A DNA stretch of 64,000 nucleotides, taken from the NCBI GenBank assembly GCA_963681965.1, contig OY820579.1, positions 384,001 through 448,000 of the forward strand. Reading direction: 5' to 3'. Below, piece by piece: positions 3,737 through 48,477 of the stretch. Both the position numbers and the translations under genes were made by a program. The stretch's first letter is position 1, and each line of letters starts with the position of its first letter. The notes under the pieces were generated by a model. The model worked only from the letters and a program-made list of their open reading frames with translations. It ran no database searches and was not told where the DNA came from. The DNA comes from a bacterium (GTDB taxonomy: Bacteria > Electryoneota > JAOADG01).

Positions 3737-6700
3737 GTGAAACTGAGACTGATTCCTCTCGTCGTATTATTCTCGCTACTGCTCACCTTGAGTCTTGCGC
3801 AGGCGGCACCGATCATACGCCTCGCGACATTTCCTGCTGGCGATTCGATATTCTTCGGAAATATCATCGTTAACGAGAACTCGATATCGACATTTACGGT
3901 GGAGAATGTGGGCGATACCTCATCGACGCTCAGTTTTTCGCCGTTATCGGGAGACCTTTCCTATGTTGGCGCGTTACCGACTTCGATCGATTCCGGAGCT
4001 ACGGTCGCTTTTACCGTGCAGTGGTCTCCACTTACGCTCGGTCCGATTGCCATACCGGTTACGATTTCATCCGAAGATCCGGTCACACCGACATACACAA
4101 TCGTTCTTACCGGCATTTGTATCGATAACACAGTGCTGGCGCACGATATGATCCACGATCTCCCGTTTTCGCTCGGTTTTGAAACGGTGTTCGATTCCAT
4201 TAAGGTGGTCAATCTTGCCCGGGTAACGCCGTGCGTAATCACCCAAATAGATCTATTGGTTAATCCCCTCTTGACCGTTCTTGACACTGCCGATATTACC
4301 ATTGCACCGGGCGATTCCGCTTACATTCATCTTCGCTTTCAGTCGATCTTCCGGAACGGACATGTCAACTTTACGCTAAGTTTTACTCATTCTTTCGGTA
4401 CCGAACACATTTTCCTTTCAGCGACCGTCGAAACGCCGCCCAACCAATACTATGTGTACAATACTCACGCCGATGGGATCGGATCGTTGTTACAAGCGAT
4501 TATCGATGCCGATCGAGCCACCGGTACCGATTCCTCGGATTTTCCGCCACCAGTCATCCTGTTCCGGATTCCACTTTCCGATTCCGGATATAGCGCGGCA
4601 CGTGGCGTATTTACGATCAATGCGCCAGTCCTCCCCCCAATTCAGCGCCCGTATCTAACCATTGAAGGATTTTCCCAAGTGGGCTTTACCGGAAATACCA
4701 ACAGTGTCGAGCTGGGAAGCACAACCGTCGGGGAAGGCGATTACACATTTAATCAATTCGATGGTCCGGAAATTGAAATTGTCGGAACCTCACTTTCATC
4801 ACGTGGATTAACGATCGATTCCAACAACGTGACGATCTCCCATATCGCGATTTATGGGTATAGTACCAATATTTATGCGTACCAGACCAGCAACCTGACA
4901 CTAGTGAATTGCGTTATCGGCTCGCCGGCAGACCAGTTCGCACGACCGCCCTCCCCAATTTTTACGGGAATCAATTGTCAGGTCATAAACGTTCCGGATT
5001 TCGCGATTTACCATTGCTTAATCGGTTATGCTGCTGCCTTTAACGTGTTTGTCACGAACTCACCGCGATTGCATATCGAAGATGCGGAAATCGCTTACGC
5101 CAATATGCATGGAATATTCGCGAATTTCTGCGACTCGGTCACCGTCGGTGGTTCCATCATTCGTAACAATAACCAATGCGGTCTTCAATTGAGCAGTTCG
5201 GTTGGCTATCATCAAATCAATTTCAATTCCTTCCTGAATAACTCATATACCGCTATCAAGCTGAGCGGACCGCATAACGCCGTCTCCTACAACAAAGTTT
5301 GGTTCAATGGCGAAGGCATCGTTGCACATGGCGACTTCCCCTCAATACCCGAACAGCGCTCGATCGGCAATTACATCATCTACAATAGTCTGAAAGCTAA
5401 CGCAATCGGTATCGATCTTGCCCGGGATGGAATGGGCGGACCAATGAACGGCGACGGACTGACACCGAACGATTTCGCCGATGCCGACAGCGGTGCCGAT
5501 GCGCTCTTGAATTATCCGGTACTCACTTCCGCCGTTACGGGTGGTGGTAATCTCGAAGTGGCGGGATATTGCCGTCCCGGCTTGCGGATCGATTTGTATC
5601 GCGTCGATCCGAACGACCACAACGACTTTGGTCAGGGGATGGAACATCTGGCGACTGTAATCGAAGGATCGGTGGACGATCACGACTCTTCGACTGCCCT
5701 GTACACCAATCCCGTCAATCGGATCAATCAGGGTACCGACAGTACCAACCGATTTCTCTTCTTCATTCCGTTGACAACGCTTGGTCATCCGCTTTCCATC
5801 GGCGACCGTATCGTTGCCACCGCATACGACCCGATTGCCGGCACCTCGGAATTCTCCGGTTCGATGCAGGTCTACCCATCGTATATCCGCTTCGGTCGAT
5901 TTGTCGAGTACAGTTCGAATAATTCCGGAATTGGAAGTTTGCAGATCAACGATATCGCCACACTTTCCAGCGGAACGCCGTTATCATCGGTGATGGTATA
6001 TGTCGCCACAGCCAATGACGGCTTATATATCCTGAATAAAACCACCAATGTCTGGACGCATTACGACGCATCGACACCCGGCTTCCCGGGCAATAGCCTG
6101 ACCAAGGTAAAAGTCCGGAGCAATGGCGATATCTACGTCGGTACCGCTACTCAGGGTGCTGGCTATTTCAATGCCACCACCGGTATCTGGCAGACTTGGA
6201 ACGAGACGACTAGTGCCCTTCGCGGCAATCATATTTATGATATCCATTGCTATAGTCACGGTTCGGACGAATATGTCGCATTTGCAACCGATACCCATCT
6301 TTGCCTGTTAAACTTGACGACAAATACTTTTACCAACTACAACGATGCCAATTCGAACTTACCTGCTGGCAATTTCTATAGCGTCTATCACGATTATATT
6401 CATCACGAACTGTGGGTCGGCACGTCCTTCGGACCGAGCCGGTCACTCGATAATGGCGTCACTTGGACGCATTATACCCGGGCGAATTCCGGCGTCACCA
6501 GCGATGTGATTTTGTCGTTTACGATCAATGTCGATAATCACAATGAGTTATTGGCAGGTACGCAGGGAGCCGGTCTTGATCGCTATAACCGTCTGACCAA
6601 TACCTGGTCGCGCTATCCAAATATTGGTGCCACTTCGACCGTCGGCGATGTCCTCAGTCTACCCGGCGCAGTATTCGTTGCCGCGTGGAATCAAGGATTG

Positions 6701-11700: not shown

Positions 11701-14700
11701 GCATCCGTTACCCAAATTCCGTATTCGACATTGTTCGTACCGGAAGAAGTATCGACCAGCGAAATTCCATCGAAAGTGATCCAGTCGGCGCCAGCCAATT
11801 TTATCATATAATCGGTTGTAGCACTGGTTCCGGGTGTGGAGATCGTAACGGTACCGGTTTCTTTCTGGAAGACAACTTGGTTCTCTTCGCTTACATTCGC
11901 GATCGTATTCGGAATCGTTATCGCTTCGTAATACGTTCCCGGTCGGATGTTAAACGTAACGCCCCCGGCACCGACACCTGCCAATTGCATTCCTGCTATG
12001 GCTGCAGCAAAGCTTGCGAAACTCGGATTGGCGCCACCGATCGTTTTTATACCAGCCAACGGGGGTAAATAAGTACGGAACGACCAGACACCACTCGAAG
12101 AGGTTAAACCGGTATTGTTATGCGCTACAACTTTCCAATAATACCATGTTCCTTCGGGTGGGTTCGACAGATTGTAGCTGGTCGTCGTAGTTGCCGAAAG
12201 TACTCGAGCGCCTACTACCGAATTTTGAACATCGGTTAAGGTTGTCGACAAGTACACGTCAACATTCGTGGTTCGAGCGCCGATCGACCAATTTAAAATT
12301 ATCGGATTGTCGGAGATATCTGTCAAACCATTGCCGGGACTCGTTAATGTGGGGGCTTCCGGAGCCGATGCGCTGACAAACGTGCCTTCATCGGCACCGA
12401 TATCCGGCGTTTCACTTCGAGTGTCACCCTCGATATCGGTAGTAATCCAGGCGATCTGCTGAGCAGTGTTTTCCACCGGAGTTGCAGATAGATTCGTACC
12501 GATTAGCAAATTATAAGGTGCTGTCACACTTGAGTAAACCGGATCAGTCGAGGCAGATGCATTGTCTTGTCCAGTGGCAGTTTGCCAATTTCCCAACGTC
12601 GCTTGATCCGCACTATAGTATCCCACAAAACCATTGGTAGTATTGGGAATATAAAAGACATTGTTGTTGGATGAAGTAATGGTTCCACCACTCCGGTACA
12701 CGCCGTAATGCTTTGCCGTGGTTGGAGTCATCGCAGAATTGTAAAAAATGTTGTTCCGCATATTGATCGATGTCGCAGTGCTAAAGTAAACACAAGCACT
12801 GTTATACCGATCGTTTGTCGGATTGATCGCATCGATAAGATAGCTGTTGTTATCAAGATACAATGTACTGATCGATGAGATATATGTCCCGTAGATATAA
12901 AATGACGCGATCGCACTGGCATTCGTCGAAGTCGATTTCAAGCCGTAGATCATGTTGTTGTAGATCCGCATTTCGGTAACAGTTGTACCGGAAGTGACAT
13001 AGATACCGTACTTCACGTACCGGGTAGTCGTGATACTGTTACTGGCATTATTGAAAATCCGGTTACCGTTAATCTTGGGTATGCCGTATGCGGTCGTGAT
13101 GTAGATATCGTAGCTAGTAATACCGGTAGTATTGTGATTCGTTATATCGAGATCGTGCACCCAGAAATTTTCTTGACTGTCGAGATAGATCGCATAGGTA
13201 CCCGAAATTGAATCTTGTCCGACAACCATTCGACCGGTAAAACCTAAACCCTGTTCCGTACTTCCGATTTCGTTATCGAGATCACGGTAAGTACTGCTTC
13301 CCTGACCGATATAGATGCCGTAATAACACTTCCCAATTTTCAGATTCAGATATCGGTTGTAACTTTGAGTACCGGCAGTAGTTGTTGCCGAAGTAGTACT
13401 ATATTGTCTGATTCCGTACGTGGTCGATAATGGATGCAGGGTAATCGAACAATTCTGAATCGTATTGTGTTGCGCACCATCGGTACCACCGACATCGGTT
13501 AACCAGTAACCGTATTCGATCTTGTAGGTCGATGAAGTAGAAGTATCGACCAGCGATATTCCATCGAATGTAACCCAATCGGTCCCAGCAATTTTTACCA
13601 TATAGTCGGTAGTGCCGGATGTTCCGGGAGTCGAAATCGTCACGGCTTCCAATTCCGGCTGAAAAATTACTTGATTGGATTCACTCACATTGGGAATATT
13701 CTGAAGTAGGATCGATTCGTAATAAGTTCCTCCGCGGACATTAAAAGTAACTCCTCCATCAGCAACGCCGCCCATCTGCAATGCCAGCACTGCCGAAGCA
13801 AAGTTGGGGAAATCCGCGTCGGCACCTCCGATCGACATCATCCCCGAAAGCTGTTGAAAAGTATTGAAAGACCGAATCAAACCGGGAGTAACTTCTAATG
13901 TCGTTGAATTTCGTGCAACTACTCGCCAATAGTACATTTGATTATTTGATATCGGTGCGTTAAACGTGGTTGCCGTAATTCCGCTCGCAATACGAGCAGT
14001 GCTGTTCATCGTAACCACACTTGATTGATTCGTCGATAAATAAATATCGAAATTATCGGTATTCGCTCCGGCAGTCCAACTTAATGCCGCTGTCGCAGTT
14101 GAAATTGAAGTTCCGTTAGCCGGACTGACAAGTGTCGCTGCACCGGGCAATGTTGCACTATTGGTAATATCGAGTTGCATATTCGGACGATTTAGCGATG
14201 CATAGTACGTGATTCCACCACTTGCAATCGTATTCCAACTCAAATTATCGGTGTAAAAATAAATGAATTTGTTCTCGGTCGTCGCGGTATAGTACCAATT
14301 GTTGCCGCCACTGACATCGGTGGTCACAAATGCGCGAAATAAAACCATTAAATTGTTAGAACCGGAATAAGTGAACGGTGTGGTAAAAGTGAATGTATAC
14401 CAGCCAACAGCAAGTGTCGGAGTGACTGTAGAATGATATACATTGGTCGCACCAACCGAGAATTGATTCCAATTCAGCGGCGATGGAAAACTTGCGGTTT
14501 CGGTTTCGGACATCCAGATATCGACGGTATCTTGTCCCGTTCCCGACCATGTCGCCGCAGTTCCGCAATACAGCGAGATTGAGTTAATCGTTCCTCTCAG
14601 CCCGATCTCGGCAGGGGTATAAATCGCAGCTCCACCGGAGTAGTGCCAGTACTTGTACAGTGGATATGATTGTCCAGTCGTACCGGTACCGATTGTCACA

Positions 14701-30890: not shown

Positions 30891-31009
30891 GATAGTTGTT
30901 CTCGAAAATAAGTTGTCATGATTCGGTGTCAGGCTTCGCCTGACCTGTGGGTGGAAGCGGGGTTCCGCCCCCTACTACCGATAACAAATGATTTTCAAGA
31001 GAGACTATT
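30891..31009 (+). mobile_element. MITE copy 2
   Basis: Same TIRs and internal GTCAGGCTTCGCCTGAC and ..TCCGCCCCCTAC hairpins as the other copies. Confidence 0.85.
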
Positions 31010-31018
31010 GTAATTCAA

Positions 31019-34000
31019 TTACTTTGTCGCAGCTTCGGCACGTGCACGATATTCGGCAGCTTTTTCCAAGTCACCTAGTTGTTCATAAGTTTCATAAATA
31101 CTCTTGAAGATGCTAACGGTCTTCGGGTGCCGTTCACCCAAAATCGCTAGACAGATTTCCAGCGCATTTTGGTGAAACTCCAATGCCCGACTCGGCTCAC
31201 CTTTATCATTATACACCGACCCGATGTTATTGTAGGACGTCGCAACAAAGGGGTGACGTGACCCGAGCGCTGCGATACGGACATTTAGCGCTTTTTGGAA
31301 TACCTCCAGTGCCCGATCATACTCTTTTTTCTCGTAATACACACATCCCATACTATTGTAAGTATTGGCGGTAGCGGGATGCCGGTCGCCCAGCACTGCT
31401 AATTGGATATCCAACGCTTTTTGGAGAACCTCCGATGCCCGATCATACTCCTTTAAATTGAAATAAACATTTCCAATATTGCCGTAGGACAATGCGGTGT
31501 CGGGATGCTGGTCGCCCAAGGTTGCTAACTGAATTTCGAGCGATTTCCGGTAAACCTCTAGTGCCTTGTCGTACTCCCGATTTTCGAAATAAACACTCCC
31601 GATATTTCCATAGGACCACGCGGTATCGGAATGGCAATCTCCCAATACCGCCAACCGGATTTCCAACGATTTTTGAAGAACTTCCAGCGCCTTGTCCAAT
31701 TTGCCGATACGCCCGTAAATATTCCCGATACTGCTGTAGGACATTGCCGTAGCATTGTGATGTTCACCTAAGACAACTAATTGGATATCCAGCGATTTCT
31801 GGTGATACTCCAAGGCAAGATCGAACTGCCCCTTGTTAAAGTAAATATTTCCGATATTGTTATAGGTCATCAAGGTATCGGGGTGCCGGTCGCCCATAAT
31901 GACTAATTGGATTTCCAACGATTTCGTGTATTCCTCTAATGCTCGATCGTACACACCTTGACGGCTATAAATAATACCAAGATTTCGATGAGAAATTGCC
32001 ATTTCGAGTTGTTGTTCACCACGATACTGCCGATTCAGCACCAAACTTCGTTGGTTCGCAACAAGCGCTTTTTCGAAGTGGCATTGCTCCAACTCGAACA
32101 TTCCCGCTTTGTTATAATAGACTACTGCCTGCGCCCATTCTTCCGCTTGGTCGAAATGAGTCGCGATATCGAACCATTGTTGATAATCATCTTCAAAGAG
32201 GTGCACCATCGTATCGGCAGCAAGTTTGTGTAATTTGCGTACCTGTTTCTTGAGTTGCATTTCATAAGCGGCATCGCGCAATAAAATATGACTGAACAAA
32301 TAGTGCAATTCATGGATCGCATTCCAGATGTGTTCCTGCTCTCCGGTTGCAAGCTGTTTCGAAAGTGTCGCACTTTTACTTTTTCGTTCCGATACCAGCG
32401 ATTTTAGCATTTCTGCCAATACTTGCACGGCAAATTCTCGACCCAGTACGCTGGCGGTATGCACTACTTGCTTCAAACCCGACTGCAATCGGTCGATTCG
32501 CGCGACTAATATCGATTGAATTTGTGACGGGAGTTCTTGTGCCGATTCCGAAAGCGTGAAGCGGTTCCCGACCAATTTGAGTTGATTCGTTTCCCGCAAA
32601 TAGAGCGCAAGCTGTTCGCAATAAAATGGATTTCCTTGTGAACGCTTGAAGAGATAGTCACTCACTGACTCGGTAATCTCCGATCCGAGTAAGTTAACAG
32701 TGAACGCAGAAATTTGTTCGGGGGAAAGGGCATTTAAATCAATTTCGTCGACCGCTACATCATGATCAAGTCTAAGTCGAGGCTTGCTCCCATCGTCGGA
32801 ATATCGCGAAGTGACGATCATTTTGAATGGAATCGCTTCGGCGTGTCGCGTTAGAGTAGCAACAACTGCTTTTGATTCATCGTCGAGCCAATGCAAATCT
32901 TCCAGAACGAGTACGACGGGTTGAAGCTGACAATACGCTTCGAGAAGGGATTTGATGGCAAACCGTACGACCGTGGATCGCTCTCGCGGGATAATATTCG
33001 CGTAATTTGACCCTTCCCACGCGAGTCCGACCATACTAGCGATGATCGATTCGATTCGAATGAGTTCCTGCTGGAGCGCTGGTGCAATCGAACGACACCG
33101 GTCGGCAAATTTGATCCATTGCTCGCGAAAATAGCTGCGGCGTTGCTCGATTGAATCGATCTCACCGCTGGTAAAAGTATGGCGAATCCATTCGACGAAC
33201 GGATTCAGCGGATTTTGAAGAATCGGATCGGTAGACAACGTTATAACTTGCGCACGATCCGAAATAGCTTGAGCAAATTCAAAGATCAGGCGTGATTTGC
33301 CTTGTCCCGCTTCACCGTAAAGATAGGTAACAGATGCGAATCTTCGATCCTTCCAAATTGCCTCCGAAACAGCTTCCAAGCGTTTCAATTCGGTATCGCG
33401 ACCGATCATTTTCGTTAAATACCTCGGCGCTGCTTGCGATTTTCGAAGTTGAGTAACGCGATAGACCGGGATCGGATTAGAAAACCCTTTGAAATCGTAT
33501 TCTCCAAGTTCGGCAAATTGCCACCGATCCTTAGTCGATTCGAAAATGCGCTGTCCGCACCATACCGCTCCAAACTCGGCATTCATCATCATTCGCGCGG
33601 CAAGATTTACCGATAAACCGAGAGCAGTATATTCGCAACGTCGTTTTGAGCCGACGATACCGGCAAAGGCAGTCCCTTGTGTAAGTCCGATCCGGACGAC
33701 ATTAGCGTACTCATCGCGAATCGTCGTCGCGAATTCGAGGGCACGATGCGACATCTTTTCCAGTGCCGTTGGCGCACCGAATAGAACCAGGATGACACAC
33801 CCTTTGTCACTCACATCGACTTTATTGAAATAGCCACCGAAGCGATCCGATAACGTCAGAATGTGCTCGATTTTTTTCGCATCAATTCGATTCAGGTTGA
33901 TAAAACAAGCGACGATATCGCGAAATTCGCCGGAAGTTTTTTGCGACAATATTGAGCGTGGAACGAACCGTGTATTTACCGCTCGAATATTGTGTCGATG

Positions 34001-34615
34001 TTTACTTGGTGGGATTGCACCATTGGTCAATTCACGGAAATCATTACTCAGCTTTTTAGTATTGACTGCCCCGGGATATGGTAACGATTGCAATATACCC
34101 TTTGTTACAACGATCGAATTTAACTGGGCGACATTTTCCGAAATTACTGCCGCTTCGATTGCGAATCCAGAGTACCAATATGTTGCTTGAGGTCGCGAGG
34201 GGAGGATTTGCCACGATACGGTACCCATACCAATTCCGATGCGAACCGAAACGCGAAATTCGCCGAATGGTGTTGTTCGTAATCCATGTTCACGAAAGAA
34301 ATCGCGAATATCGATGGCGGCACCGAGGACATCGTGACCGTTGGCATCGCGTTTTGGAAAGATGGCAGTGAAGGCATCTCCGGCAAAGCTTGCAACGAAC
34401 CCGCCATGTCGTTCAATCGCATCGATTGCCGGAGTAAACAAAGCATTGATCGTGTCGTTAAGGATCTCGCTACCTTCTTTACCGCTCATCATCAATGCAT
34501 TTGTCAACGCAGTAAAACCACTCAGATCGACAAACATGGCGTGACCAGAAAATTTACCGCGATGACTAGACAAGTGGATGAACTTTTGTATCGGTAGTGG
34601 TGAGAAGAACGGCAT
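31019..34615 (-). CDS. Twin class III adenylate/guanylate cyclase + STAND/AAA ATPase + TPR protein
   Basis: FVDLSGFT/FAGDA in domain 1; DKG and VNLAARMM in domain 2; Walker A GEAGQGKS, Walker B VLVLEDLHW; 42-aa HPDTAxSYxNIG TPRs; ATG 34615 with GAGG SD. Confidence 0.9.
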   Translation of the reverse strand: MPFFSPLPIQKFIHLSSHRGKFSGHAMFVDLSGFTALTNALMMSGKEGSEILNDTINALFTPAIDAIERHGGFVASFAGDAFTAIFPKRDANGHDVLGAAIDIRDFFREHGLRTTPFGEFRVSVRIGIGMGTVSWQILPSRPQATYWYSGFAIEAAVISENVAQLNSIVVTKGILQSLPYPGAVNTKKLSNDFRELTNGAIPPSKHRHNIRAVNTRFVPRSILSQKTSGEFRDIVACFINLNRIDAKKIEHILTLSDRFGGYFNKVDVSDKGCVILVLFGAPTALEKMSHRALEFATTIRDEYANVVRIGLTQGTAFAGIVGSKRRCEYTALGLSVNLAARMMMNAEFGAVWCGQRIFESTKDRWQFAELGEYDFKGFSNPIPVYRVTQLRKSQAAPRYLTKMIGRDTELKRLEAVSEAIWKDRRFASVTYLYGEAGQGKSRLIFEFAQAISDRAQVITLSTDPILQNPLNPFVEWIRHTFTSGEIDSIEQRRSYFREQWIKFADRCRSIAPALQQELIRIESIIASMVGLAWEGSNYANIIPRERSTVVRFAIKSLLEAYCQLQPVVLVLEDLHWLDDESKAVVATLTRHAEAIPFKMIVTSRYSDDGSKPRLRLDHDVAVDEIDLNALSPEQISAFTVNLLGSEITESVSDYLFKRSQGNPFYCEQLALYLRETNQLKLVGNRFTLSESAQELPSQIQSILVARIDRLQSGLKQVVHTASVLGREFAVQVLAEMLKSLVSERKSKSATLSKQLATGEQEHIWNAIHELHYLFSHILLRDAAYEMQLKKQVRKLHKLAADTMVHLFEDDYQQWFDIATHFDQAEEWAQAVVYYNKAGMFELEQCHFEKALVANQRSLVLNRQYRGEQQLEMAISHRNLGIIYSRQGVYDRALEEYTKSLEIQLVIMGDRHPDTLMTYNNIGNIYFNKGQFDLALEYHQKSLDIQLVVLGEHHNATAMSYSSIGNIYGRIGKLDKALEVLQKSLEIRLAVLGDCHSDTAWSYGNIGSVYFENREYDKALEVYRKSLEIQLATLGDQHPDTALSYGNIGNVYFNLKEYDRASEVLQKALDIQLAVLGDRHPATANTYNSMGCVYYEKKEYDRALEVFQKALNVRIAALGSRHPFVATSYNNIGSVYNDKGEPSRALEFHQNALEICLAILGERHPKTVSIFKSIYETYEQLGDLEKAAEYRARAEAATK

Positions 34616-34892
34616 TAGATCCTCAAGAAACAAGATGTTTTGGTTTATACCGACAGATAGTACTTAAAGTTTCAAATAATTATTCCTGATTTTCGCATGA
34701 TCAATAAACATAAATTCTGCACATTTTGCCACTCTTTTACCTGATTTCGATAGTTCAAGCCGAGTGCTTTGTAAAAACTGGATTGACGACAATGGTGTGT
34801 ATCTGAAACTGAAATTCAAGATCTCCGCGACACCTGATGAGAAGACATAAAGTACGATATTGGATTTCTAGTGCAAAATTTTATTGGGTGGC

Positions 34893-35156
34893 TGATCGTG
34901 TTGAAGCAGAAATCCATGAAAATCGAAAGTCCGTTAAGTACGTTGCAGATCGCGAAGCAGGAAAAACAATCCGCCATCCAGCAAGTCGAGCGGGCGATTG
35001 AACTTGCTACTCGCTTCGTTGTAGGGTCAGTCAAAAAAGCTGGTTTTTCTCTATTCGTCCATTGACACCATCACTATCGTGTTTGCAGGAAAAACCTCGT
35101 TTAGCAAAGTGATTCTGCGCAGCGGTTTCGGCAGTCAGGTCGCGATGGCGGGATGA
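34893..35156 (+). pseudogene. Degenerate copy of the 3' end of the serine recombinase gene
   Basis: Aligns by eye to ~37551-37829 (KQKSMKIESPLSTLQIAKQEKQSAIQQVERAIELATRF vs KQESVKIESQLCTLQNAKQEKHSALQQVERAIELATRF), with deletion/frameshift, then KVILRSGFGSQVAMA. Confidence 0.85.
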
Positions 35157-35217
35157 TACAGGAACTTGATAACCGATCATAATCAACATTCACGACACCA
35201 ATAGTAATATAGATTTT

Positions 35218-35454
35218 TTATATCACTATTTCTTCTCTGTTTCCATTGCGTCCACCAATCGGTTCAGACAATGGACGACTGGGATGTCCTAAGGTTGAGT
35301 AATCAATATAATTACCACTGTAATTCAGAGTTTTAAGTATGCATCTGTTTATGAGAGTTCGGTAAGTACAAGAAATATTTGTGCGGTGGTTATCGATCCC
35401 CTCCCGATGTTTCTTTGCCCACACCCTGAGCAACTCTGCTATCGTCTCAATCAT
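35218..35454 (-). CDS. Small AT-rich hypothetical protein (possible cargo or remnant)
   Basis: 78-aa ORF only; no recognised motif. Confidence 0.3.
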   Translation of the reverse strand: MIETIAELLRVWAKKHREGIDNHRTNISCTYRTLINRCILKTLNYSGNYIDYSTLGHPSRPLSEPIGGRNGNREEIVI

Positions 35455-35560
35455 AATGTGTCCAACCTAAAAAGCGCTAAGGTAACTCGGAGTCCGACGG
35501 CAAAATGTCCACTTTTTTCAGATCGCTCCCATCTGTATTAATAAAGGGGGTCAAATCGAA

Positions 35561-35779
35561 ATGGACATTCCAACGAAAAAGCAAATCAAACCAAGAACTT
35601 CGGTGCTGGTCGAAGTTCATGGCTGTTTGACGAATTTAACACTCGAAAGGGAACTTCCCCTAAATGGACGACGAGTTTTGCGACATTTGTCGAAGAGCGA
35701 GCAATGTAACTCATCCCAGAAGAACCAACTTGACTTTTTTGATTTGATTGGAGATGGCGAGGAGGATCAATGCAATTGA
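35561..35779 (+). CDS. Small hypothetical protein
   Basis: AAAGGGGG SD; overlaps the next ORF start. Confidence 0.5.
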   Translation: MDIPTKKQIKPRTSVLVEVHGCLTNLTLERELPLNGRRVLRHLSKSEQCNSSQKNQLDFFDLIGDGEEDQCN

Positions 35780-36024
35780 TCTTCGAACCTCGCGCTCAAT
35801 CTCGTTCAGAGGTCGAGGTGAGTGTCGTCTTCACGTCGCAACCTCCCACGGATGCTGACCGCAAATTGCAGAATAGTGGAATGAATTTGTTTGCCCAATG
35901 GTTGACGCGACACCTTCAGAAGCCGCGTACCAAAAGGCTTACGCTGATTGTTGAATTTGACTTCTCGCTGTTTTCATCGCAATGTGTCGATGGAATTATG
36001 ACAGGAGGTCAGGCGATACAATGA
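35770..36024 (+). CDS. Small hypothetical protein, translationally coupled to the recombinase
   Basis: GGAGGA SD; ATGA overlap with recombinase start. Confidence 0.55.
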   Translation: MQLIFEPRAQSRSEVEVSVVFTSQPPTDADRKLQNSGMNLFAQWLTRHLQKPRTKRLTLIVEFDFSLFSSQCVDGIMTGGQAIQ

Positions 36025-37829
36025 GAGCAAACTCAATATCCGGAAGTAAACTTGCCGTCGGCTACTTACGTCGCTCCACCGACCGGCAAGAGCAGTCGAT
36101 TGGCGACCAGAAGCAAGCTATCGAACTTTACGCAGCGAATCACGATTTTGAAATTCTGGAGTACTATACCGACGATGCGATAAGTGGCGCGACGTCTTCC
36201 GAGCGTCCAGCTTTTCTAAAACTGATAAGCGATGCGAAGCAAATGCACTGCCCGTTCAAGTTTGTGCTGGTATATGACATCAAGCGATTCGGTCGTGTCG
36301 ATAACGATGAGGCGGGGTTCTACCGTCACCAACTTAAAACTTGCGGAACCGAAATCATATACGTTTCGGAAGGATTGAACGGTGACTACTCAGATGGTTT
36401 GGTGCTTGGTGTCAAACAATGGCTTGCAAGACAGGAGTTAATTGATCTCAGTAAAGTGACTGTGCGCGGTCAGCTCAGTCGTGTTGATGCGGGTTGGTGG
36501 GCAGGCGGAGTTCCTCCGTTCGGTTACGACTTGGTGTATTACTCCAGCAGCGGTGAGGTCGTACGCATCGTCCGGTTCATGCCCAATGGCACTCGTGAGT
36601 TGCTCAATCAGCATGGTCATGTTGAGCGAGTACTTCCCAAGGGTGAAGTGATTCCGTCCTCCAGCCGCGACCGATCCAAATTGACTTTGAGTTCACCAGA
36701 TCGCGTAGAACTCGTCAAACGCATTTTTTCGATGTACTTGCATGACGGTTTTGGTTACAAGGGGATAGCGATACGCTTGAATCGCGAAATGCAACCTGCT
36801 CCTTTCGGCAACAATCGATCTTCGCTGAGCAACGAGGGGTGGTGCGTATCAACGGTAGCGTCGATTCTAAAAAATCCCATTTACACCGGCGACATGGTTT
36901 GGAACCGCACAAGCTTCGGAAAATTCCATCGAATCGAAAATGGCTGTGCAACTGCGATAAGATCAATCAAGCCGTTGACCCACCAGTACAACGATTCCTC
37001 AAATTGGATCGTCGTCCCTGAAACGCACCCGGCGATTATCACTCGAGCAGAATTTGATAATGCGCAAGTGAAACGGGAAATCGGTATTTCTTCCGGAGTT
37101 GGGAACGGTTGGAATCGGGGGTACGGTGTTAACTCGCCATTCCTTTTGACTGGTCTAATCGAATGCCTGAACTGCGGTCACAACTTCGTCGGGTACGCAA
37201 TCCACCAAGGTCGGCAGCGTCCTGGGCGCGTTCGCCACAAGAACCATTACTACGTTTGCAACGGGTATTTGACGAAAGGGAAAGACCACTGTCCCCGGCA
37301 TATCATCCCGAAAGACGAACTCGAGAAAAGGATTTTGCGGGAACTTGGGAAGCTGCTGCGCAAACGGTTCGCTACACCGGAAGGGCGTGCGGAACTGCGC
37401 CAGAGCATCGAGAACCTCAGCTACGAGCGGAATCCACAACTCGAACGCGAGATCGAGCGGTTGGAAAAACGGTTGCCGACAATTCGGCAGACAATCTCAA
37501 ACCTTGTCGACAGTCTCTCGCCGACCACACGGGAGTTTGTTGAACCCCGATTGGTCGAGCTGAAACAGGAGTCGGTGAAAATCGAGAGTCAGTTGTGTAC
37601 GCTGCAGAATGCGAAGCAGGAGAAGCACTCCGCCCTGCAGCAAGTCGAACGGGCGATTGAGTTGGCAACTCGCTTCGAGGAAGTATTTGAAGAGGGGTCG
37701 GTCGAAGAGAAGCGGGTCTTCCTGAATTCGTTCATCGACCGAATAACAATCGAGTTCGAAGGTTCGACCGCCGTCACCAAAGTGATTCTACGTAGCGGTT
37801 TCGGTAGTCAGGTCGCGATGGCAGTATAG
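36021..37829 (+). CDS. Large serine recombinase (resolvase + recombinase + Zn ribbon + coiled coil)
   Basis: YLRRSTDRQ catalytic Ser, DDAISG..RPAF, RFGR, PPFGY, ILKNPIYTG, HPAII, CLNCG..YYVC; CAGGAGG SD before ATG 36021. Confidence 0.95.
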   Translation: MRANSISGSKLAVGYLRRSTDRQEQSIGDQKQAIELYAANHDFEILEYYTDDAISGATSSERPAFLKLISDAKQMHCPFKFVLVYDIKRFGRVDNDEAGFYRHQLKTCGTEIIYVSEGLNGDYSDGLVLGVKQWLARQELIDLSKVTVRGQLSRVDAGWWAGGVPPFGYDLVYYSSSGEVVRIVRFMPNGTRELLNQHGHVERVLPKGEVIPSSSRDRSKLTLSSPDRVELVKRIFSMYLHDGFGYKGIAIRLNREMQPAPFGNNRSSLSNEGWCVSTVASILKNPIYTGDMVWNRTSFGKFHRIENGCATAIRSIKPLTHQYNDSSNWIVVPETHPAIITRAEFDNAQVKREIGISSGVGNGWNRGYGVNSPFLLTGLIECLNCGHNFVGYAIHQGRQRPGRVRHKNHYYVCNGYLTKGKDHCPRHIIPKDELEKRILRELGKLLRKRFATPEGRAELRQSIENLSYERNPQLEREIERLEKRLPTIRQTISNLVDSLSPTTREFVEPRLVELKQESVKIESQLCTLQNAKQEKHSALQQVERAIELATRFEEVFEEGSVEEKRVFLNSFIDRITIEFEGSTAVTKVILRSGFGSQVAMAV

Positions 37830-37850
37830 GCGTTCCGTACAGCGATGAGA

Positions 37851-37887
37851 AAGGGCGAGGTTGGGTTTCCAGCCTCGTTTTCTTTTG
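37851..37887 (+). terminator. Intrinsic terminator after recombinase
   Basis: CGAGGTTGG-GTTT-CCAGCCTCG followed by TTTTCTTTT. Confidence 0.7.
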
Positions 37888-37983
37888 TGCCCAAGGTTTG
37901 GATACCAAGTCCAGATAGGTCGCGCTGAGGGGCGCAGTAAAGTGATTTTCAAATGCGATGGTGGGCAATCGACGCCGAGCTGG

Positions 37984-38075
37984 TCGACCGAATGAAAATG
38001 GATTCGAAGGCAAGACCGCCGTCACCTAGGTGATTCTACGCAACAGCTTCGGTAATCAGGTCGCGATTCAGGTAA
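37984..38075 (+). repeat. Third, shorter degenerate copy of the recombinase 3' end
   Basis: TCGACCGAAT..TTCGAAGG..GACCGCCGTCACC..GTGATTCTACG..TTCGGTA.TCAGGTCGCGAT matches ~37735-37819. Confidence 0.85.
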
Positions 38076-38122
38076 GTTTAATCTTAACTTAAACGAGGCA
38101 ATTGAAATATATGCTGTACAAG

Positions 38123-38698
38123 TTAATTATGAAGCTCTTGGGGTAAGAAGGCGTTGATTTCGTCTTTCGAAAAAGTCATCTCTTGGTCTTTTTGAAGTGC
38201 CTTTTGCGCTTTCTTGTATGCTTTCGATGTGGTACTGGGAGCCCCAGAATATACCGATCCGAGCTCAGAAATTAGCTCATCTCTGATTTGAGTTATGCTC
38301 TCGATGCTCTCCGATTCACGTTTTACGTCACCGATTAGTGAGGTCAACTTTTCGCGAATCAGCCAGAGTTCATTGGCAGCTTGTTTATGTTTCTGAGCGA
38401 TCTCACCTAAGTCGTAGTTTTTTGTGTAAGCGGTAAGAACTAACAAAGTGACTGAAATCAACAGCCCAACGATAGTCGTAATATGCGACTCACCGAAAAT
38501 TGTACCGATGAAACTTGCAGTAGTTAGAGCACTCAGAATAATCTGCAGGAGTTTAATACTCGCAAGTCTTGACAAAAGGATTTCGGCACATTTTTCATGC
38601 GTTTTGTGTGAATACACAACTCGCCCAAAGCACTCACGGATTTGGGCACCCACGATTGAATATCCATACTTCGGGTCATTCTGGGAATATGGTTCCAA
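38123..38698 (-). CDS. SLATT-family two-TM effector (CBASS effector)
   Basis: QIRECFGRVVYSHKTHEK, two TM helices, AQKHKQAANELWLIRE; likely TTG start at 38698 with GGAGAG SD overlapping CD-NTase end. Confidence 0.85.
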   Translation of the reverse strand: MEPYSQNDPKYGYSIVGAQIRECFGRVVYSHKTHEKCAEILLSRLASIKLLQIILSALTTASFIGTIFGESHITTIVGLLISVTLLVLTAYTKNYDLGEIAQKHKQAANELWLIREKLTSLIGDVKRESESIESITQIRDELISELGSVYSGAPSTTSKAYKKAQKALQKDQEMTFSKDEINAFLPQELHN

Positions 38699-39557
38699 AA
38701 ATTTCTCTCCACTTTTGTTTTGCAGACCATTCATGTTTTGGGGAAGCAGATTCATACCCAATTGCTTCGACCGATATGTTGTAACATCTCGTTGATTTGT
38801 ACTGAAAGTTTCCTTTCTTGTATACCCATTGCCCACTTCCAGGTGCGCGCCAATAATCTTGTTGTTCGTTTTGGTTAGCCATATAGCGAAAAAAATCTCG
38901 ACACATATAGTCGTAGTAAAGGTAGGATTTGTCTCTATATTCGTAATTTTCGATAAATTGATATGCCAAGGTGTCGATTAATAAGCCACCAATTGGAACT
39001 TCCCACTTTCTTTTCCATGCGCGCATCATTCGACAAAGTGGGATTAAATTGTAATTACAAGCTTTATTTCTGTCTCGAATAGCTTGAATTTCTGGTTTCG
39101 GGTCAGTATGCTTCCATTTTCCACCGTTGTTAGTATCCGGATACATATAAGTACCATTCTTACAAACAAAAGCGGGAACAATCTCAAATGTCAAGTTATC
39201 TGTGAACGCAATCACCAACACTTGCCCATCAGCACCTGTCGTTGTGGTTGGATATGTTTTCTGCAATGAGCTTCGTACAGCTTGCAGTAAAGCAGACTGC
39301 CCGTTACCTGCATAACTATTGAATTGTTCGTAAGTGGTATAAGGAAGTTCGTATATCATATCCAAGTCACTAAACCCTTGGATAGCGGTATTTCTACCGT
39401 AAGAACCGACGTATAGACTATGGGCAGAATCGGAAGATGTAGACCAAAAATCAGAATTCAGGCACCGAGTTATTCGTTTGTATCTGCTTGAGATAGATTC
39501 AACGTCCTTCACTTGAAGGTTTTTATTGAAAGTTTCGAACCACTCCGCCAAACCCAT
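38676..39557 (-). CDS. SMODS / CD-NTase cyclic oligonucleotide synthase (CBASS)
   Basis: GSYGRNTAI..SDLDM nucleotidyltransferase motif, FEIVPAF, W..TDP, RMMRAWK; AT-rich; coupled to SLATT gene. Confidence 0.9.
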   Translation of the reverse strand: MGLAEWFETFNKNLQVKDVESISSRYKRITRCLNSDFWSTSSDSAHSLYVGSYGRNTAIQGFSDLDMIYELPYTTYEQFNSYAGNGQSALLQAVRSSLQKTYPTTTTGADGQVLVIAFTDNLTFEIVPAFVCKNGTYMYPDTNNGGKWKHTDPKPEIQAIRDRNKACNYNLIPLCRMMRAWKRKWEVPIGGLLIDTLAYQFIENYEYRDKSYLYYDYMCRDFFRYMANQNEQQDYWRAPGSGQWVYKKGNFQYKSTRCYNISVEAIGYESASPKHEWSAKQKWREIFGTIFPE

Positions 39558-39643
39558 TTTTCCCTCGAAGTCGAACTTACTTGAGTTGTTGACAGTTCTA
39601 AGTTTATTTGCCTCTCTAAATTCCCGAATGTGTTGAAAAGTAC

Positions 39644-39676
39644 AAAAAAAAAGACCTGCTCGACAAGCAGGTCTTC
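39644..39676 (-). terminator. Terminator downstream of tRNA
   Basis: AAGACCTGCT-CGACA-AGCAGGTCTT stem preceded by an A run (T tract on minus). Confidence 0.8.
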
Positions 39677-39687
39677 AGTAATATCCG

Positions 39688-39761
39688 TAGCGGGAGAGGG
39701 ATTCGAACCCCCGACACGTGGATTATGATTCCACTGCTCTAACCAACTGAGCTACCCCGCC
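39688..39761 (-). tRNA. tRNA-Met(CAT), elongator-type; CCA not encoded
   Basis: GGCGGGGTAGCTCAGTTGGTTAGAGCAGTGGAATCATAATCCACGTGTCGGGGGTTCGAATCCCTCTCCCGCTA folds as a cloverleaf with CAT anticodon. Confidence 0.95.
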
Positions 39762-48359: not shown

Positions 48360-48477
48360 TATAGTGGTTCTAGAAAATAAGTTGTCATGATTCGGTGTCA
48401 GGCTTCGCCTGACCTACGGGCGGACACGGGGGTCCGCCCCTACTACCGATAACAACATATTTTCAAGAGATACTTTA
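48360..48477 (+). mobile_element. MITE copy 3 (best-conserved internal REPs)
   Basis: TIRs plus two tandem REPs reading GTAGGTCAGGCGAAGCCTGAC and GTAGGGGCGGACCCCCGTGTCCGCCC on minus. Confidence 0.85.

Follow-up and report, generated by a model that had tools for sequence, protein, structure and literature searches.

Tails of two further recombinase genes beside an intact large serine recombinase gene: a probable decayed array of islands at a tRNA-Met gene in an Electryoneota genome

We analysed a stretch of 64,000 nucleotides from an Electryoneota genome (assembly GCA_963681965.1, contig OY820579.1, positions 384,001 to 448,000; hereafter the window, with coordinates counted from its first letter), which carries an intact gene for a large serine recombinase (LSR) accompanied by two further copies of the 3' end of such a gene. 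The locus probably, though by no means certainly, represents small LSR islands that accumulated head to tail at a tRNA hotspot and then decayed, an arrangement of a known kind, and the array would extend from 34.6 to 39.65 kb, in a variable region just downstream of a tRNA-Met gene. Such an array would comprise one intact unit (small open reading frames (ORFs), the LSR gene and a terminator) together with two further, diverged units of which only the LSR 3' tails are left, and a two-gene cyclic oligonucleotide-based antiphage signalling system (CBASS) would lie between the array and the tRNA. The features that make up the recombinase part of the locus are as follows.

34888-35156, plus strand: upstream relic (C''), the last ~92 codons of a different LSR gene (residues ~510-601), frameshifted, with its own stop kept
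35561-36024, plus strand: a pair of small ORFs (72 and 84 aa) that overlap each other and precede the LSR gene, as given in the ORF list
36021-37829, plus strand: intact LSR gene, 602 aa, with Resolvase, Recombinase and Zn_ribbon_recom domains
37852-37890, plus strand: terminator-like hairpin (13 pairs) and T run, right after the LSR stop
37984-38067, plus strand: downstream relic (C'), the last ~28 codons (~84 nt) of a third LSR gene, carrying an in-frame TAG as well as a 1-nt indel

Judged by its domains, the product of 36021-37829 is a large serine recombinase: a Resolvase catalytic domain (PF00239, residues 25-163, 4e-19) is followed by matches to PF07508 (residues 239-365, 4e-22) and PF13408 (residues 388-455, 1.2e-12), and the protein as a whole matches PHROG 95 'integrase' (2.2e-93). 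Near the N-terminus of the translation an S-T-D-R-Q stretch is seen, which we take to be the catalytic serine motif, and the predicted activity of the enzyme is recombination between attP and attB with a 2-bp crossover. Protein family searches found no family for either of the two small ORFs ahead of the gene; the second (84 aa), which overlaps the LSR start, shows a weak alignment to the small ORF found ahead of the LSR in relatives (18-30% identity, with a common W-L-[AT]-R stretch).

The last ~270 bp of the LSR gene is present three times within 3.2 kb, always on the same strand, as the original prediction had described. The core pattern of this 3' end has three matches (35109-35146, 37782-37819 and 38030-38067) against none in 100 shuffles, and when the whole 4.24-Mb genome was searched with the LSR 3' end only these three places matched (E 5.6e-150, 1e-43 and 4.6e-18), the other 15 matches listed having E values of at least 0.165. 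A repeat search returned 65-nt copies that are 78% and 85% identical to the copy in the intact gene, as well as the longer pairs 34893-35018/37552-37677 (80%) and 35037-35154/37710-37827 (75%). The terminal 38 nt is the best-kept part of all three copies (35/38 and 33/38 identical).

Codon-level comparison indicates what the two extra copies are. A net 14-nt deletion splits the upstream relic into two frames, with the stop retained at the homologous place. Over 84 aligned codons, it differs from the intact gene by a dN of 0.16 and a dS of 1.08 (dN/dS ~0.15), all three of its differences within the terminal 38 nt are synonymous, and its nucleotide identity to the intact gene is ~77%, where LSR paralogues within another genome of the phylum are 80-90% identical to one another. 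These rates imply the tail of a separate, long-diverged LSR gene that was once functional and under purifying selection. On this coding evidence, the upstream copy is the remnant of a formerly working recombinase gene and no duplicate made by recombination, which goes against the proposal that each copy is a scar left by integration. The downstream copy is identical to the intact gene at 55 of 66 nt and carries two synonymous and six non-synonymous codon differences, one of them a stop; it is a decayed piece of a third LSR gene. What had looked like a triplication is one intact recombinase gene and the tails of two others.

The second line of evidence is the position of the locus beside a tRNA gene that forms the right-hand limit of a variable region.

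39647-39761, minus strand: tRNA-Met (39687-39761) and its terminator hairpin (39650-39676)

A genome of the same genus (G001) shares the MgtC-like gene, the tRNA-Met gene and the terminator with the window, and homology ends at ~39647. Left of tRNA-Met, G001 carries instead a 1223-aa TPR-PIN protein. Because a different gene occupies this place in G001, the block with the three copies and the CBASS genes sits in a variable hotspot that starts right past the tRNA terminator. Three same-strand LSR 3' ends next to tRNA-Met, with a flank that varies between the window and G001, amount to several head-to-tail units at one hotspot. The MgtC loci of genomes G002 and G003 have no tRNA.

An array of this kind could have formed as follows. 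The LSR gene would read outward at the tRNA-proximal edge of its element, so that its 3' end would stand beside the attachment site, and related elements would have arrived successively at or near one place and in the same orientation. Deletions would then have stripped redundant recombinase genes from the 5' side and left their tails, the LSR 3' end being the last part to be lost since it lies at the element edge. We infer, then, site-specific accretion as the origin of the array and deletion as its mode of decay, and the relic ends may still be usable as sites in cis.

Several known systems are built along similar lines. Composite islands of the staphylococcal cassette chromosome type (SCC/SCCmec) also combine large serine recombinases, tandem arrays at one site and defence genes alongside; there, two recombinases (CcrAB) act jointly, the target is the rlmH 3' end, and the borders are short repeats. 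In the ssrA islands of Dehalococcoides, a CcrB-like large serine recombinase (DsiB) is associated with tandem islands beside one small RNA gene. They carry adaptive cargo; some have no integration module, and for these mobilisation in cis has been proposed (PMC3146451). Those islands differ in that every border consists of 20 bp copied from the ssrA end, with the integrase gene adjacent to attL (PMC3146451), whereas here no tRNA-end copy was found and the repeated mark is 84-270 bp of recombinase gene, diverged by 15-25%. In the tRNA islands of Prochlorococcus (tycheposons), newcomers are described as pushing older elements along and leaving fragmented integrases behind (10.1101/2020.12.28.424599). 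Repeated integration at a tRNA, fragmented integrase remnants and defence cargo are common ground with the window, but 910 of the 937 elements have tyrosine recombinases and partial tRNAs stand at the borders (10.1101/2020.12.28.424599).

Relatives of the recombinase supply the third line of evidence. An LSR match was found in 23 of 79 Calditrichota genomes, one genome holding at least five LSR paralogues whose common DNA is only the LSR gene and ~200 bp before it. When 28 related loci were scanned for tRNAs, five of them, from other phyla, had a tRNA convergent with the LSR 3' end and no more than 300 nt away: tRNA-Glu at L062 and tRNA-Met at L071, L076, L078 and L033. At L078 and L062, the LSR ORF runs through the tRNA terminator into the tRNA. 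With a tRNA beside or overlapping its 3' end, the LSR gene in these relatives reads outward at the tRNA-side edge of its element, and tRNA-Met flanks in several phyla appear to be the target of this family. The idea that crossover takes place in or near the LSR 3' end is therefore reasonable for the family, whose LSR 3' end lies at the tRNA edge; in the window itself, however, 1.86 kb (the downstream relic and the CBASS genes) separates the LSR gene from tRNA-Met.

Repeated 3' ends also recur. When 29 related loci were each compared with themselves, three proved to have a further copy of the LSR 3' end downstream of the gene and on its strand, each with different cargo, though many of the 29 have less than 2 kb after the LSR and 3/29 may not give the true frequency. 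At L055 the fragment is 77% identical and lies 7.4 kb downstream, behind a 101-aa ORF and two T9SS beta-helix proteins; at L064 it is 74% identical and 5.8 kb downstream, behind TetR, OEP, HlyD and ABC transporter genes; at L073 it is 79% identical, 1.8 kb downstream and cut by the contig end. All five fragments that adjoin an LSR (two in the window and three in relatives) have the orientation of that LSR, and orphan tails without a nearby LSR occur at L098, L115 and G004:C62. The common orientation in the window and at these three loci, together with the edge position of the LSR, upholds the part of the original prediction that saw a tandem build-up of serine-recombinase elements near a tRNA.

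Wider sampling added few cases. A metagenome scan with an alignment of the 3' part gave 15 loci, mostly short contigs with full genes, which added the fragments L110, L111, L114 and L115 and contained no further case of LSR, cargo and fragment together; 17 aligned tails were too heterogeneous to serve as a query for scanning loci. Among viral contigs, no relative was found with the query used. In a sample of Planctomycetota, 88 of 301 genomes match and in none were an LSR and a fragment seen on one contig, a result that is uninformative since at most four candidates were scored per genome.

Some features of the related loci are recorded here in their own right. The 'LSR' of L064 has no catalytic domain, and LSR homologues of this form have starts that recur in separate contigs, at residue ~154 in L066, L108, L109 and G061:C26 and at ~128-134 in L064 and L031; they could be a domesticated DNA-binding form or the product of recurrent truncation. 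L066 is a 12,088-bp contig from a Calditrichota bin whose ends (1-77 and 12012-12088) are identical, so that it is apparently circular (12,011 bp); its LSR homologue is without residues 1-~153, the catalytic domain, and is flanked by 53-bp direct repeats (870-922 and 2334-2385, 81%). In L058, 45-50-nt repeats of 95-98% identity stand at 500-544, 970-1019 and 4727-4776, the copy at the start of the small pre-LSR ORF being inverted relative to the two copies ~3.7-4.2 kb upstream, which may point to an invertible segment or to a mobile repeat. L072 carries a 45-nt copy (78%) of the tRNA-Met 3' end (4356-4400 and 4452-4496), 96 nt past the tRNA and 5.5 kb upstream of an LSR on the same strand, which looks like an old attachment scar. 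Finally, the DNA common to two LSR copies includes a LexA-like S24 peptidase repressor gene (L055 1309-1926, minus strand; L059 12-~790) that is oriented divergently to the small ORF and the LSR. It suggests SOS-type control of such elements in some genomes; the window has none.

A number of observations weigh against reading the locus as an array of islands. No att site was identified, and neither the tRNA end nor its flank is repeated at the unit borders, where the only repeats are the LSR tails themselves. The DNA that follows the three copies was compared for common half-sites and proved unlike, with no match above shuffles (p 0.43-0.83). Between the LSR 3' ends and the tRNA-Met region there is no significant likeness, the only matches being of 9-12 nt (p 0.03-0.09 among six tests). 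Homology between the copies stops at the stop codon, maybe only because neutral sites are saturated (dS ~1), and the stop by itself thus marks no element end. It is the CBASS pair, with no LSR tail, that adjoins tRNA-Met, which makes the order of arrivals unclear. The left border of the variable region was not placed by comparison with G001, because that genome is fragmented. Nor do the fragments themselves behave entirely as simple erosion predicts. In the residue numbering of the window LSR, every relic reaches residues ~577-601 and the 5' limits range from ~367 to ~572, as loss from the 5' side would leave them, yet five of the nine internal fragments begin within residues ~498-515 (the upstream relic of the window at ~510, L055 at ~508, L098 at <=513, L115 at <=515 and L064 at ~498; others at ~367, ~381 and ~459), and the two shortest fragments, the downstream copy of the window and that of L073, start within ~5 codons of each other, near residue 570. 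Erosion would give no clustering of 5' limits and leaves these clusters unexplained.

Two attempts to sharpen this picture gave little. A 57%-identical cyclase-NTPase-TPR gene of G001 was tried as a marker of the left border and was uninformative, as its neighbours differ. No joint between the copies was present in the contigs of four public sequencing runs, a form of the data that drops rare forms; runs X1 and X3 cover the stretch continuously, and X4 and X5 cover it in pieces with gaps. Of eight runs listed, five contain the stretch, and none is recorded as an RNA run. The only joint in the region, from 33228 to 39628 (depth 3.6, side 22, with 30 foreign letters), was set aside as being of a kind prone to be spurious.

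Of the alternatives, the one that survives best places site-specific recombination within the LSR gene, either in the coiled-coil-tip codons or closer to the 3' end. It sharpens the integron-like idea of the original prediction and takes two forms: cargo modules with a spare tail are inserted, giving a full LSR, cargo and a displaced tail, or the att site of the element splits the gene. We consider it unlikely, although it deserves to be set out in full. The first cluster of fragment limits falls at the tip of a predicted coiled coil, ahead of a conserved R-L-V-E-L-K stretch, where the window gene has the following feature.

37515-37562, plus strand: imperfect dyad (arms of 18 nt, spacer of 12 nt) in the coiled-coil-tip codons of the LSR gene; the stretch homologous to the upstream relic begins within the spacer or immediately past it

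Among the 1809 centres of the window gene, this dyad shares the top score; across five L055-clade genes it takes ranks 1-22. Third-codon-position identity shows a modest local peak at the same place (0.62-0.68 vs ~0.5). Against this, the dyad ranks only 61-218 in four other genes (L064, L078, L063 and L068), and the members of the clade are not independent. The centre used is the highest-ranking one within a stretch of 55 nt; corrected for that choice, the chance is ~0.03-0.06 in the best genes and as much as ~0.66 in the weakest clade member. The limits do not fall at one nucleotide, that of L064 being ~27 nt from that of L055 and others lying at ~367, ~381 and ~459, and no half-site-like sequence stands left of the fragments. 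The clustering could reflect a recombinase site inside the gene, or equally the dyad may act as a hotspot for ordinary deletions.

The arrangement at L055 and L064, where a full LSR is followed by different cargo with no other integrase in it and then by a diverged 3' fragment, suits such an in-gene site, except that the 'LSR' of L064 has no catalytic domain. A parallel is offered by phage 21 and e14 in icd, where the prophage enters the 3' end of a gene and supplies a replacement end. As in L055 and L064, a full gene, an insert and a displaced, diverged 3' fragment on the same strand result; there, however, a host gene is the target and the insert has a tyrosine recombinase, whereas here the gene would be that of the recombinase itself and the insert has no integrase. 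L060 is most closely related to the 5' part of L055, and its 3' end is matched slightly better by the L055 fragment (79.0% of 271 nt) than by L055's own 3' end (74.2%), a difference within sampling error. The LSR paralogues are mosaics with many scattered breakpoints instead of a single one at the tip, and their X and C identities correlate poorly (r 0.37); as a test for 3'-module exchange this neither supports nor excludes a special site, and the contigs are possibly chimeric. None of the 79 loci with CBASS relatives described below has such an LSR or fragment. The bolder version, in which this LSR family recombines a site in its own reading frame at the tip codons, with spare-tail cargo inserted behind an intact recombinase and orphan tails as empty or used sites, strikes us as improbable.

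Plain local history, in which LSR paralogues were duplicated or landed by general recombination and then decayed, the copies being irrelevant to mobility, is likewise a doubtful account. It would sit well with the free exchange of segments among LSR paralogues and with the finding of no att repeats or excision joints. Yet a dS of ~1 between the copies and their different flanks speak against local duplication, and the uniform orientation of all five fragments, together with the reappearance of the pattern in three other genomes whose cargo differs, fits an arrival that was oriented and site-directed, as does the position beside a tRNA, shared with five relatives. That the fragments were retained for a function, either as a small LSR-modulating protein (second coiled-coil helix and last zinc-ribbon strands) or as an LSR-bound, cis-mobilisable DNA end, is very improbable: the recurrent start points, the open frames over most fragments (74, 153, 90 and 100 aa) and the well-kept terminal 38 nt of the three window copies are outweighed by the frameshift in the upstream copy and the stop in the downstream one, by inspection of the window and L055 by eye, which revealed no plausible start codon preceded by a ribosome-binding site, by the start of the L055 fragment ORF, which runs through the terminator of the cargo gene, and by a search among shorter proteins like the 3' part that returned only the window's own 64-aa ORF.

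A decayed array of LSR islands being the preferred reading, the minus-strand genes near the relics call for description as its neighbours.

35218-35454, minus strand: 78-aa ORF, AT-rich, with no family and no homologue, which may not be a gene
38123-38836, minus strand: SLATT_4 two-transmembrane effector of the CBASS pair (Pfam 2.1e-67; PADLOC 2TM effector 3e-77)
38676-39557, minus strand: CD-NTase (SMODS) oligonucleotide cyclase of the CBASS pair (Pfam 1.1e-51; PADLOC cyclase 6.5e-141)

Pfam and PADLOC agree with the original prediction in finding a SLATT/CD-NTase pair, and, with a CD-NTase gene adjoining an effector gene, 38123-39557 is by its gene content a CBASS of type I. Read from its first GTG, the SLATT ORF shares 161 nt (38676-38836) with the CD-NTase gene; since the Pfam match sets in only at residue 64, translation probably begins at an inner codon. 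Also correct was the observation that AT-rich minus-strand ORFs end about 50-60 bp past each extra copy: the stop of the 78-aa ORF lies 61 bp past the upstream copy and that of the SLATT gene (38123) lies 55 bp past the downstream copy, and GC is ~0.38-0.41 in the DNA of those ORFs vs ~0.49-0.55 in the LSR gene.

These neighbours lend no support to the integron-like capture of cargo that had been suggested. The flanks of the copies are unlike, family searches with the 78-aa ORF were empty and a homologue search returned only the ORF itself, and the contigs of the four runs, in which rare forms would not appear, show no joint between the copies. Relatives of the CBASS pair were found at 79 loci in many phyla, with CD-NTases 49-71% identical to that of the window, and at none of the 79 is there an LSR of this family or the tail of one, the sole LSR-like match among them being a distant one (21% identity). 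Integrons are alike in having a recombinase gene with an adjoining array of cargo that looks promoterless, but they use the tyrosine recombinase IntI, attI, folded attC sites and a Pc promoter. In the window there is only a serine recombinase and no IntI, no common sequence borders the cargo before or after it except the LSR tails, and the CBASS genes are elsewhere unlinked to this LSR.

Two further features lie to the sides of the locus. Directly left of the LSR block, 31019-34633 (minus strand) encodes a protein of 1204 aa that combines a nucleotide cyclase domain with an AAA_16 NTPase and numerous TPRs and has weak PADLOC matches to Pycsar cyclases. A ~116-nt repeat with GC-rich, hairpin-forming parts is found at 30892-31008 and ~48361-48474 and has at least 40 copies genome-wide at 85-91% identity (104 candidates); assemblies break at its copies, it matches no Rfam family, and it looks MITE- or REP-like.

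For annotation, both LSR fragments in the window are best treated as pseudogene relics and not as genes. If the locus is a decayed array of LSR islands, it would add one more tRNA-side hotspot, in a little-studied phylum, at which small recombinase-borne islands accumulate and decay with anti-phage genes in the residue. Should the LSR family instead recombine a site within its own gene, the outcome would be a serine-recombinase-based cassette system with the enzyme's own reading frame as its target, and if a recombinase acts at the truncation points that recur in unrelated genomes, these would mark an unusual way of capturing cargo.

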